From: an archaeon
GTDB lineage: Archaea; Asgardarchaeota; Thorarchaeia; Thorarchaeales; Thorarchaeaceae
Direction: 5' to 3'
DNA: 32,000 nucleotides
Assembly (NCBI GenBank): GCA_024275415.1
Contig: JAJRZD010000034.1
Location: forward strand, 30,001-62,000
The stretch's first letter is position 1. Each line of letters starts with the position of its first letter. Of the stretch, positions 3,843-30,252 are shown one piece after another. The position numbers were made by a program, and so were the translations under genes. The notes under the pieces were generated by a model. It was not told where the DNA came from and ran no database searches. It was given only the letters and a program-made list of their open reading frames with translations.

Positions 3843-3931
3843 AACCTTCCACTCCACTGAGAGGTTGAATTTGAAACGATATATATTCTCACTACTGCCC
3901 GCAATGCCATTCTAGCTCCCACCACAATCTC

Positions 3932-3937
3932 TATAAA
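3932..3937 (+). promoter_or_regulatory. Putative TATA box for tRNA-Lys
   Basis: TATAAA 27-32 nt upstream of the tRNA 5' end at 3964. Confidence 0.5.
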
Positions 3938-3963
3938 CTGTTGATGCTCACTTCGCCGAACGT

Positions 3964-4129
3964 GGGCCAGTGGCTAAGCCAGGTATAGCGACAGGACGTT
4001 CGGAACCCCTCCGGCGTGTTGAAGCTCTTAACTTGTAGAGTCTGGGATTCCCCCTGGCTCGAGGAATGGTCGAGGGTTCTTCGCTATTGATTTCCAGTAG
4101 CAAGCCCAAAAATCCCTCCTGGCCCGCCA
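3964..4129 (+). tRNA. tRNA-Lys(CTT) with three introns (30/31: 3995-4023; 43/44: 4037-4066; 56/57: 4080-4109); CCA encoded
   Basis: Exons 3964-3994, 4024-4036, 4067-4079, 4110-4129 join to GGGCCAGTGGCTAAGCCAGGTATAGCGACAGGCTCTTAACTTGTTGGTCGAGGGTTCAAATCCCTCCTGGCCCGCCA. Cloverleaf: acceptor GGGCCAG/CTGGCCC, D-stem GCTA/TAGC, anticodon stem ACAGG/CTTGT, loop CT-CTT-AA, T-stem GAGGG/CCCTC, loop TTCAAAT. Each intron folds into a BHB-like junction. Confidence 0.93.
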
Positions 4130-4221
4130 TCTTATATTTTCCGTTCATTCAGTGTCAGGTATTCGTAATTCGCACACTCGCAACAGCATATTGACTGGTT
4201 AGCTTGCACACCTGCATTAGC

Positions 4222-14298: not shown

Positions 14299-14940
14299 CT
14301 ACGAAGAATCCTTTTGCTTCATTCGTTCTTCAAACTCGCTGAGTTCTTGCATCATCTTGTTCTGCCGCACAGCATTGGTGACATCTCCTCTGGTTCTCTC
14401 AATTAAGTTTCGTGCTATGTCGCATTTCCTTCTGAGATCTGGGATAAGTGCATTCGGGAAGTCGAACTCTTTCAGCCCCTCGAAAATGTGCTCCATCAAC
14501 GCAAGTAATTCAGTGGACTTGTTGATATCATCACGCCTCAGGCTCTCTAGCACGGCCCTTCTGAGTTCCCCGATGGTGTCACCCATCCCCGATAGGTATG
14601 CTCTTGATGGGATGTCATACTCTGATGGTGTGGTGATCTCACCTCTCTCTAATATTGAAAGGACATTCGCAGCCTCTGCCAGCTCCTGAAATGCCGTATC
14701 TAGGATGTGCGATTTGAGCAAGTACTCACTCTCTGCAATCTCGGTCTTTACCTCCTCAATGATCGAGTTCGCTTCATCGAGGGCAATTTTAGCCAGTTCA
14801 AACTCTCCTCTATGGGACATCTTGATGGATTCTGAGCACTTCCTTACAGCCTTCCGCGCAAGAGGGAGTGCCTTCTCTCGGACAGCATCATCTTTCTCAA
14901 TTTCCTCTCTAATCTTGCCTAATACGCTCTCAAAATCCAT
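14299..14940 (-). CDS. Archaeal translin/C3PO-family RNA-binding protein
   Basis: D.VRE.AL..AR..VR....I...HRG, QELAEA, AYL.G.GD.IGELRR, LRRK.D.AR...ERT. Confidence 0.88.
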   Translation of the reverse strand: MDFESVLGKIREEIEKDDAVREKALPLARKAVRKCSESIKMSHRGEFELAKIALDEANSIIEEVKTEIAESEYLLKSHILDTAFQELAEAANVLSILERGEITTPSEYDIPSRAYLSGMGDTIGELRRAVLESLRRDDINKSTELLALMEHIFEGLKEFDFPNALIPDLRRKCDIARNLIERTRGDVTNAVRQNKMMQELSEFEERMKQKDSS

Positions 14941-14946
14941 ATCCAA

Positions 14947-15945
14947 TCACCGTTGTTCGTTCTCCAGTCGCTTTATGTGTTTTCCACGCGCCAATAATAC
15001 TACTCTGCTCTCTGTTTGCTCGTCGACAAGATAGTACCCAGTCAATGATGCAATTTTTTGTCCAAAGGCCCTGATTTCTGATTGCGGTGTGGCATTGTCT
15101 GGCGAGAGCCGTTCCCGTGAAAGGCCAATGTGCATGTAGCCCTTTACCTCTATGAAATCGGGCTCTCCAAGATTGATTAGTTTTGCATACTGTCGTATTC
15201 CATGCATGTTCCGTCCGGTAACCATCGTCAATCGGTTAACGGTTCGACAATCTAGGGATTGCAGCATCTCCTGAGATTCTAACAGCTTTTCCCATGCATT
15301 CTTCACCCCTGGTTTTAGCAACTGGGAATGCACCTCCTTGTCAGGTGATGCCAGTGTGATGTATAATTGGGTCGGGAGAGTGATGTCTGCGAGAACATCA
15401 GGACGTGTGCCATTAGTGACAAGAAATGATGTCATCCCACGTCGGTCTATCTCTTCTATGAACTCACTTAAGAATGGATACAGGGTGGGCTCACCAGCCA
15501 AGGAAATCGCAACATGCTTTGGTTCTCGTGCTTCCAAATATTTGTCCTTTGGGACATTGGCTCCAGCATCCGGGTTATACCCTCCCAATGAACGAAGATT
15601 GGCCTTCAACGTTTCATCGAGAAGCTTTGTAGGTGACAGGACATCCTGAGATCCCACTACTGTCTGATTCCATCCGATACCAATATCCTTCGGAGTCACT
15701 CTCCAACAGAACTCACAGTTTTGCGTGCATTTGTCTACAACAGGGGTCATCTGCAGGCATCGGTGCGATTCAATACCATAGAACTTTTGTTTGTAACATA
15801 CATCTCCATGGAGAAGACTTTTTCTCTGCCACTGGCATGCTTTGAAAGCGCCTCTCACACCAAGTAAATGGTAACCCTGTTTTTCGAGCCTGTGTTTGAG
15901 TTCTTTTGGCAATTCCTCTGGCAATGTGACACTCACTTGGTGCAA
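14947..15945 (-). CDS. tyw1: 4-demethylwyosine synthase TYW1/Taw1 (radical SAM)
   Basis: K.C.W....L, CYKQKFYGI.SHRC.QMTP, CTQNCEFCWR, HVAISLAGEPTLYP, FLVTNGT, IEVKGYM..G.SR.RL. Confidence 0.95.
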   Translation of the reverse strand: MHQVSVTLPEELPKELKHRLEKQGYHLLGVRGAFKACQWQRKSLLHGDVCYKQKFYGIESHRCLQMTPVVDKCTQNCEFCWRVTPKDIGIGWNQTVVGSQDVLSPTKLLDETLKANLRSLGGYNPDAGANVPKDKYLEAREPKHVAISLAGEPTLYPFLSEFIEEIDRRGMTSFLVTNGTRPDVLADITLPTQLYITLASPDKEVHSQLLKPGVKNAWEKLLESQEMLQSLDCRTVNRLTMVTGRNMHGIRQYAKLINLGEPDFIEVKGYMHIGLSRERLSPDNATPQSEIRAFGQKIASLTGYYLVDEQTESRVVLLARGKHIKRLENEQR

Positions 15946-27609: not shown

Positions 27610-28554
27610 CTATTTCCTGAGCTTTAACCAGATAGCGACGATTGCCACTACTGCCACTCCACCAACAACCATCAGTGTGGTTGTCGAATCCAATGGCAGG
27701 GTATCTGCTGATGCGATTCCCAACACAGGGTCGTAGATCAACGTGTCATTCCCGAAGTACTCAAATGCTAAATATACTGACTCTCCTCTTTCACCGCCCA
27801 TGCCTTCACCGTAGCTGGCTCTGACTTGAAGGGAGTTCTGAGACTCCAGTGCGAGGGCTTCCTCCTCATAATGCATGTATGCATTGTCGAAGTTGAACTT
27901 AGTTCCTACCTTGTGGAACCCTCTAGGATTCCTCTCGGGCATCCCTTCGCCATGACCGCTCTCAGTGATGGTGAATTGTAGGACTAGGATTGAACTATCA
28001 TATGTCCAGTTCCAGCCATCGATAATGACATCGAACTTCACTTCTCCCGGGTTGTCCATGTATAGATGGACTCGGATTTGAACCATGACATCAAATGCCA
28101 CCATGTCAGGTATCTGCCAATTTTCGCCCATGGGCCGTGGGTCGAACTCTGTGGTCGTGGTGAAGTTGAAGTGGACAGCTGTAATGTTATCGCCTTCACT
28201 CTCGGTTTCAAAACCGCTGAACTCCCAGCCCGATGTTGGGAGCATGAAACGAGCTCCTATGACCTCGTCCACCCCGCGAGTGAAAACGTTGTCCCCGTCC
28301 GTGTCATTGGCCTCGAAAAGACTCACAAAGAGCATGTGATAGTCTATGGATTCGTTATTCGGATCCCACCAGAAAAAGTGTGGCACCTGATTTGCACCGA
28401 CCACCTTGACGCTCAATTCGTCAGTGCTTAGAGTGACGACGCCTGCAGAATGGTTGTACTGCAATCCGTTGCCCTGTGCGGAAGCTGCCGGAATGCTTAT
28501 GGCCAACATGCCGACCGCCAGCAGCGAGAGTATAATTTTCATGTGATTATTCAT
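27610..28554 (-). CDS. Predicted cell-surface glycoprotein (signal peptide, beta-rich domain, C-terminal TM anchor)
   Basis: N-terminal signal peptide, seven N-x-S/T sequons, DTDGD acidic loop, C-terminal TM followed by KLRK. Confidence 0.8.
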   Translation of the reverse strand: MNNHMKIILSLLAVGMLAISIPAASAQGNGLQYNHSAGVVTLSTDELSVKVVGANQVPHFFWWDPNNESIDYHMLFVSLFEANDTDGDNVFTRGVDEVIGARFMLPTSGWEFSGFETESEGDNITAVHFNFTTTTEFDPRPMGENWQIPDMVAFDVMVQIRVHLYMDNPGEVKFDVIIDGWNWTYDSSILVLQFTITESGHGEGMPERNPRGFHKVGTKFNFDNAYMHYEEEALALESQNSLQVRASYGEGMGGERGESVYLAFEYFGNDTLIYDPVLGIASADTLPLDSTTTLMVVGGVAVVAIVAIWLKLRK

Positions 28555-30090: not shown

Positions 30091-30252
30091 GCCGCCGTGG
30101 CTCAGTAGGTAGATGATACCTATTTTGGTATCAACCGAAAGCGACAGCCTGTTACCTTTCGGTCAACCAGACTGGGAGCCAGACAGTTGTTGGTCGGAGG
30201 TTCGAGAGACCGTCAAATAAAACATAGCGGTCAGAAAACCCTCCCGGCGGCG
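30091..30252 (+). tRNA. tRNA-Asn(GTT) with three introns (22/23: 30113-30139; 37/38: 30155-30184; 59/60: 30207-30238); CCA not encoded
   Basis: Exons join to the 73-nt GCCGCCGTGGCTCAGTAGGTAGAGCGACAGCCTGTTAAGTTGTTGGTCGGAGGTTCGAGCCCTCCCGGCGGCG. Acceptor GCCGCCG/CGGCGGC, D-stem GCTC/GAGC, anticodon stem ACAGC/GTTGT, loop CT-GTT-AA, T-stem GGAGG/CCTCC. Each junction is BHB-like. Confidence 0.93.

Follow-up and report, generated by a model that had tools for sequence, protein, structure and literature searches.

The locus examined here raises the question of whether a 166-nt segment in which no tRNA is called by the usual programs can be a tRNA gene, and if so where its introns lie and how they would be removed. 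The window, by which we mean the whole 32-kb stretch of DNA that was analyzed, corresponds to C10:30001-62000 in an assembly of 3.53 Mb (127 contigs, 47% G+C, 92.9% complete). The assembly is a MAG with 4.5% contamination. The original prediction held that removal of segments of 29, 30, and 30 nt from window positions 3964-4129 would leave a complete tRNA-Lys cloverleaf ending in CCA, with introns at positions 30/31, 43/44, and 56/57 and none at 37/38.

Results

Three excisions yield tRNA-Lys(CUU)

Neither ARAGORN nor Rfam model RF00005 called a tRNA at any place in the 32-kb window as it stands, unspliced. A whole-genome search with RF00005 also gave no match at the locus, nor did ARAGORN with introns allowed, in line with the expectation that default annotation would easily miss the gene. 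Once positions 3995-4023, 4037-4066, and 4080-4109 were excised, the remaining 77 nt were called by ARAGORN as tRNA-Lys(ctt), in agreement with the predicted cloverleaf. The spliced molecule has a 7-bp acceptor stem, a 4-bp D-stem, a 5-bp anticodon stem with one G.U pair, and a 5-bp T-stem, and carries the T-loop UUCAAAU, G73, and the CCA end. The anticodon loop is of 7 nt with CUU at positions 34-36. The D-loop has nine bases, one of them extra (17a), and for this reason linear positions 31, 44, and 57 are Sprinzl positions 30, 43, and 56. With this numbering, and by comparison with the orthologues described below, the three introns fall at 30/31, 43/44, and 56/57, with none at 37/38, as predicted.

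The gene (3964-4129, plus strand, 166 nt, CCA encoded) begins with exon 1 (3964-3994), which holds positions 1-30, comprising the 5′ strand of the acceptor stem, the D-arm, and the start of the anticodon stem. The 29-nt intron 1 (3995-4023) at 30/31 is followed by exon 2 (4024-4036; positions 31-43), in which the anticodon CUU occupies 4027-4029. Intron 2 (4037-4066, 30 nt) at 43/44 precedes exon 3 (4067-4079; positions 44-56), which contributes the variable region, the 5′ strand of the T-stem, and U54, U55, and C56. Intron 3 (4080-4109, 30 nt) lies at 56/57 within the T-loop, and exon 4 (4110-4129; positions 57-76) supplies the remainder of the T-arm, the 3′ strand of the acceptor stem, G73, and CCA. 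A 66-aa open reading frame runs antisense to the gene (3948-4148, minus strand). It had been taken to be spurious, and it is, because orthologues carry stop codons in that frame (G022, AMARA_8, and HM6_B34).

The gene is flanked by genes for serine hydroxymethyltransferase upstream and an FTR1 permease downstream. An upstream block at 3921-3937 (plus strand) ends in TCTATAA (3930-3936), which lies 28-34 nt before tRNA position 1 and is invariant, together with its flanking bases, in the six three-intron orthologues that share the window pattern; the rest of the upstream flank diverges among them. From its position, we infer that this block is a putative BRE/TATA promoter. On the 3′ side, a T-rich tract follows the CCA (4130-4141, plus strand, with TTTT at 4137-4140) and is a likely transcription stop; most orthologues are T-rich there but cannot be aligned.

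A second three-intron tRNA gene was found in the window by the enumeration described next. Excision of approximately 30103-30130, 30155-30184, and 30207-30238 from 30091-30252 (plus strand) gives a 73-nt tRNA-Asn(GTT) by ARAGORN. Its first intron can be placed only to within a few bases, and CCA is not encoded.

Parsing of the single sequence

We applied a SPLITS-like enumeration of BHB-like excisions, combined with ARAGORN, to the single sequence. When three contiguous h′ pairs were required, intron 3 was missed and no tRNA resulted. When one mismatch was allowed, the true parse was recovered as one of 160 combinations accepted by ARAGORN, alternatives among which folded as Ala-GGC, Tyr-GTA, or Arg-CCG tRNAs of 73-80 nt. 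Applied to 20 shuffled versions of the region, this enumeration gave zero tRNA calls, which excludes chance. The parse obtained from the single sequence alone is ambiguous, and it is the comparative data that decide.

Orthologues fix the junctions

An exact-pattern scan for exon 1, using one genome per species, yielded 47 loci. Nearly all are from Candidatus Thorarchaeota, some are labeled Promethearchaeota or uncultured archaeon, and one is from Hodarchaeota; the orthologous loci thus place the host among the Asgard archaea, as had been supposed. A spliced-alignment script run over all fetched loci gave 44 distinct complete orthologues, every one of which splices to 77 nt with 0-8 differences and contains 0-3 introns. 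All 44 end in GCCA, and their T-stem differences are compensatory (GAGGG/CCCTC, GTGGG/CCCAC, GGGGG/CCCCC, and GCGAG/CTCGC).

Three of the orthologues (L037, L046, and L052) are free of introns. The L052 gene matches the predicted window-gene product at every base (0/77 differences) and scores 67.5 bits against RF00005 (gathering threshold 29), equal to the best tRNA of the host genome. Cuts after the second bulge base would therefore give exactly the mature sequence, as proposed. Because the intron-free and fewer-intron orthologues show the Lys(CTT) exon order, the junctions and the parse are settled. The intron 2 junction is unambiguous against orthologues lacking that intron, and position 30 is G in the orthologues. 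The segment at 3964-4129 is thereby confirmed as a genuine tRNA-Lys(CUU) gene with three introns.

Two other placements of the cuts were tried. Cutting intron 1 at 28/29 or 29/30 would give an all-Watson-Crick stem (ACAAG/CTTGT) and was ruled out, as the intron-free orthologues read ACAGG. An intron 2 of 28 nt with the helix CUUG/CGAG was likewise rejected, as it adds two variable-region bases absent from all orthologues.

Intron patterns were counted over the 44 distinct orthologues, with positions other than 30/31, 43/44, and 56/57 approximate to 1-2 nt. In addition to the three intron-free genes, single introns were found at 30/31 (6 orthologues), 37/38 (5), or 43/44 (2). Pairs of introns occurred at 30/31 and 56/57 (7), at 30/31 and 53/54 (2), at 37/38 and ~42/43 (1), at 37/38 and in the T-arm (8), and, in the Hodarchaeota gene, at 30/31 and, as aligned, 35/36, which is likely 37/38 (1). 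Three introns are present in 9/44: six have the pattern of the window gene, which is counted among them, two have introns at 37/38, 43/44, and 56/57, and one has introns in the D-arm and at 37/38 and 56/57. A further gene, L019, looks like a D-arm, 37/38, and T-loop pattern.

The window pattern is shared by L002 (G003), L003 (G022), L004 (G006), L036 (SDNZ01000120.1, AMARA_8), and L059 (JABCTV010000002.1, HM6_B34). The six genes are ~80% identical across the full gene length, and since they align end to end, the orthology of their three introns extends over at least two GTDB genera. The genus of the window genome is itself variable, with an intron at 30/31 only in G004 and introns at 37/38 and ~42/43 in G001. 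In two other members of the genus, G002 and G005 (the latter 95% complete), BLAST gave no match to any part of the Lys(CUU) gene; in these genomes it may have diverged further, have other interruptions, or be missing from the assembly.

In the Hodarchaeota locus (L051, JBHLKN010000002.1), the intron at 30/31 is of 22 nt and ends in GTCGAA, resembling GTTGAA in Thorarchaeia, and a second intron lies near 37/38. In the copy at L018 (G027), a normal 3′ acceptor strand seems to be missing.

One strict and two relaxed splice motifs

In the canonical BHB, the 4-bp central helix includes the first two anticodon bases, and the 3-nt bulges hold the cut sites; a relaxed motif type, HBh′, is also documented (PMC4090602). 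We used the rule for the canonical case, in which cuts fall after the second base of the 3-nt stretch beside the central helix (PMC4090602).

By its predicted pairing, intron 1 is a complete hBHBh′. The outer helix is of 2 bp (A23-U33 and G24-C32, both invariant pairs), C25-C28 pair with GUUG in the central helix, AG|G and AA|G are the bulges, and a 7-bp hairpin forms within the intron. Over 21 orthologues, 98.9% of the cells of the alignment were paired, versus 23-55% with the partners slid by 1-3 columns, and compensatory changes were seen in 4 pairs. Introns 2 and 3 are, on the same basis, of the relaxed HBh′ type. Both have the layout 1 + 9 + 5 + 9 + 4 + 2 = 30 nt, with the 5′ bulge closed by H and h′, and the 3′ site not closed by an outer helix, which both lack. 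In intron 2, the central helix is formed by three pairs (C39-G, U40-A, and U41-G/A) beside an A38.G mismatch invariant in 10/10 orthologues, and a 5-nt loop caps the 9-bp hairpin; over 10 orthologues, 83.8% of cells were paired, with 3 pairs compensatory. In intron 3, the central helix of G51-U54 with GCCC was 100% paired, and the 9-bp hairpin, also with a 5-nt loop, had compensatory changes in 8/9 pairs. Pairing over 16 orthologues was 96.6% of cells versus 27-48% when slid. The four pairs of the central helices of introns 1 and 3 were kept in 100% of cells.

The original prediction had assigned each intron a 4-nt central helix. This held for CGAC/GTTG and GGGT/GCCC, with four pairs each, one of them G.U, but ACTT/GAGG forms three pairs only. 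The prediction of a helix with two bulges for every intron was likewise correct in the strict sense for intron 1, while introns 2 and 3 are without an outer helix and their 3′ "bulges" are unclosed.

With pairing far above the slid controls, the intron hairpins (h′) are maintained by selection. From the six three-intron genes, RNAalifold recovered the three hairpins together with the acceptor stem, and 13 pairs covary. There is no overlap among the exon bases that the motifs occupy (23-33, 38-44, and 51-57), and the acceptor stem and all three motifs together make a legal fold of -44 kcal/mol, or -51 when the rest is free to fold, compared with an MFE of -65 kcal/mol; nearest-neighbour energies handle 3-nt bulges poorly and leave out the enzyme. 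A blastn-short search of the three introns against the genome gave chance-level matches only and no paralogues, and there is thus no sign of recent transposition of these introns.

Truncated 5′ copies in relatives

In many relatives, the intact tRNA-Lys(CUU) gene has beside it one to three truncated 5′ copies ("stumps"), which often include intron 1. We observed them at L002, L006, L025, L027, L028, L033, L037, L039, L040, L044, L045, L048, L050, and L063. Truncation points are found at 33/34, inside intron 1 or at its end, at 47/48, and at 50-54. Some relatives have arrays of two or three, and some stumps are inverted. They are spaced by ~0.6-2 kb, and the gap is mostly a single unrelated ORF encoding an alpha/beta hydrolase, a Kelch, TPR, beta-helix, or BPL_N protein, or a protein of unknown type. 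Pfam identified no integrase or transposase among the ORFs between stumps and intact genes, and searches with exon patterns found no stump in the genome of the window.

The varied break points and the cargo ORF suggest elements that insert into the gene, bringing with them a promoter and a front part with its introns. In that event the intron set might be exchanged in blocks, rather than introns being gained or lost singly, a possibility to which we give a minor though real weight. If this is true, a mobile-element mechanism for gaining introns and splitting genes would lie behind the striking intron differences within a genus, and behind the recurrence of position 30/31, at which tRNA-Lys(CUU) is split in Nanoarchaeum and Staphylothermus.

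Splicing enzymes of the host

The genome encodes two PF01974 (EndA) paralogues, each with N- and C-terminal EndA domains: an alpha-like protein of 190 aa on contig C69 (C69:17555-17809) and a beta-like protein of 213 aa on contig C117 (C117:29346-29603). The 190-aa protein is most similar to 3P1Z_B (E 1.1e-43), the catalytic alpha subunit in the (alpha-beta)2 EndA from Aeropyrum pernix. Its catalytic triad is kept, with Tyr in FAVY, His in DHAPF, and Lys in SVRKRF; the residue at the position of this His is Ala in the next-best chain, 3AJV_B. The alignment is gapless through the K44 loop, with a lysine aligned to A. pernix K44; broad substrate specificity requires K44 in this Crenarchaea-specific loop (PMC3488258). 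The 213-aa protein can be aligned to EndA folds, but its catalytic position is not occupied by His, which fits a structural beta subunit. An RtcB gene is also present.

The EndA type, which the original prediction had left to be identified, is therefore predicted from sequence to be two-subunit, the (alpha-beta)2 form. Asgard archaea have been described as having an (alpha-beta)2 EndA with an L1 insert/loop (PMC5829648). The host enzyme would be able to cut relaxed motifs, and RtcB would be at hand to ligate the exons. As introns 2 and 3 are without an outer helix and intron 2 has its A.G mismatch, cleavage should depend on such a broad-specificity enzyme, an activity attributed here from sequence.

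Near the beta-like EndA gene on C117, within ~1.5-2 kb, are two ARAGORN tRNA calls (27617-27694 and 27888-27985). A 457-aa ORF adjoins the same EndA gene and overlaps its 3′ end.

Lysine decoding and gene copies

Whether the genome has another tRNA-Lys(CTT) had been raised as a check. The assembly, 92.9% complete, gave none, intron-free or otherwise, when it was searched by ARAGORN in a mode that allows introns, by RF00005 at E<=1, and by patterns for exon 1 and the 3′ end; a second copy may lie in the unassembled DNA. AAG makes up 59.7% of lysine codons in 852 long ORFs; it is the major lysine codon on this count, and hence tRNA-Lys(CUU) would be heavily used.

The tRNA-Lys(UUU) gene lies on C117 (~14790-14960, minus strand) and has two introns. 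One, of 35 nt at ~43/44, starts with AGAG like intron 2 of the Lys(CUU) gene at the same position, and the other, of 30 nt in the T-loop at ~59/60, has the 1 + 9 + 5 + 9 + 4 + 2 layout. In half-spliced form, the ARAGORN fold of this tRNA used the wrong acceptor stem. Since tRNA-Lys(UUU) might read AAG by wobble, the Lys(CUU) gene is not necessarily essential.

Proposed maturation and alternative explanations

We consider it very probable that EndA and RtcB splice one strict and two relaxed BHB introns from the only Lys(CUU) gene found in this genome. Transcription would start from the TATA-like box ~30 nt upstream to give a precursor of ~170 nt containing the introns of 29, 30, and 30 nt. Each intron would fold its own hairpin (h′), and the last intron bases before the 3′ cut would pair with the four exon bases upstream of the 5′ cut to form the central helix H. 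Both cut sites would thereby lie after the second base of a 3-nt single-stranded stretch, in the geometry of a bulge-helix-bulge. An (alpha-beta)2-type EndA would then cut the six sites, and RtcB would join the four exons into the 77-nt tRNA with its encoded CCA. As the exon bases of the motifs do not overlap, the introns should in principle be removable independently, and the sequence forces no order of removal. The motifs borrow bases of the D-, anticodon-, and T-stems, and the cloverleaf would consequently form only after splicing. Transcription, EndA cleavage, RtcB ligation, and the independence of the three events are thus expectations that we infer from the sequence features described above.

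A pseudogene in decay that is no longer spliced or used, in a cell where tRNA-Lys(UUU) or an unassembled copy reads AAG, is the alternative with most to commend it. Two of the three splice motifs are relaxed, the triple-BHB fold lies above the minimum energy, a tRNA-Lys(UUU) gene exists, and the truncated 5′ copies common in relatives show that pseudogenisation occurs at this locus in the lineage. Decay is, however, hard to reconcile with exons identical to those of a functional-looking intron-free orthologue (0/77 differences), a conserved promoter block, and intron helices kept by compensatory changes across 10-21 genomes, or with the finding of no other CUU gene in a genome in which AAG is the major lysine codon. 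We regard this explanation as very improbable.

Less credible still are two explanations that deny the parse or the sequence itself. A different division into exons and introns, for instance two longer introns leaving Ala(GGC) or Tyr(GUA), draws on the 160 combinations acceptable to ARAGORN, but such parses need weak motifs (H3, short h′) and are supported by no orthologue. Orthologues without one, two, or three of the introns all keep the Lys(CTT) exon order, by which this reading is already refuted, and we assign it a negligible probability. The insertions might instead be assembly artefacts or chimeric joins, as the MAG is in 127 contigs with 4.5% contamination. Yet the same insertions at the same positions, with ~80% identity and compensatory changes, recur in five independent assemblies from different studies, and an artefact is accordingly almost inconceivable.

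Discussion

The tRNA-Lys(CUU) gene belongs to a kind already known, though uncommon among most archaea; it is a further case, in Thorarchaeia, and involves no new element or mechanism. It would indicate that Thorarchaeia, like Atabeyarchaeia and Freyarchaeia, rely on an (alpha-beta)2 EndA for a heavily used tRNA. Standard finders miss the gene entirely, which implies that the tRNA complements of Asgard MAGs are systematically under-called. The series of 44 genes, in which 0-3 introns are arranged in roughly a dozen ways around a near-invariant mature sequence, is a natural data set for the gain and loss of BHB introns, and is useful for choosing EndA substrates in vitro.

The nearest published parallels are in Atabeyarchaeia and Freyarchaeia, where 92-95% of tRNA genes have introns, over half of them several, and many at non-canonical positions (PMC11291895). 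Supplementary Data 4 for Atabeyarchaeia-1 includes a three-intron tRNA-Lys CTT gene of 168 nt (Valentin-Alvarado et al. 2024, PMC11291895). The superphylum and the phenomenon are the same, and 168 nt there compares with 166 nt in the Thorarchaeia gene. The Atabeyarchaeia gene is, however, from another class, and its tabulated positions, which are hard to read, show no obvious match to 30/31, 43/44, and 56/57. The same study is without Thorarchaeia, covariation, or an orthologue series (PMC11291895). The suggestion that a three-intron tRNA would be notable in an Asgard genome was therefore overstated, since Asgard tRNA genes with several non-canonical introns had already been published (PMC11291895).

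Outside the Asgard archaea, the original prediction pointed to Thermoproteales as the best-known source of multi-intron tRNAs, which agrees with the literature: Pyrobaculum and Thermofilum have up to three introns per tRNA (PMC8450103, PMC4033280). Three-intron genes in Thermoproteales were reported by Sugahara et al. 2007/2008, as summarized in PMC4090602, PMC4033280, and PMC8450103. The published non-canonical positions include 30/31 and 56/57; 43/44 is not among the positions compared from PMC4090602. The Thermoproteales genes resemble the present one in their BHB or relaxed-BHB introns, in the (alpha-beta)2 EndA with the Crenarchaea-specific loop, and in rapid turnover of introns between close relatives. 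They differ in belonging to another phylum and in that the introns of different genes are often alike in sequence, a pattern that has been interpreted as transposition, whereas the three introns of the window gene are without detectable paralogues in its genome.

A further parallel in tRNA and position is a split gene. Nanoarchaeum equitans and Staphylothermus have a tRNA-Lys(CUU) that is divided at 30/31, and the junction is a canonical hBHBh′ (Chan et al. 2011, PMC3218864); the tRNA and the exact position are those of intron 1. In those organisms two genes are joined in trans, whereas in the window gene the position is occupied by a 29-nt cis intron, and a 30/31 intron is also found in the Hodarchaeota locus L051.
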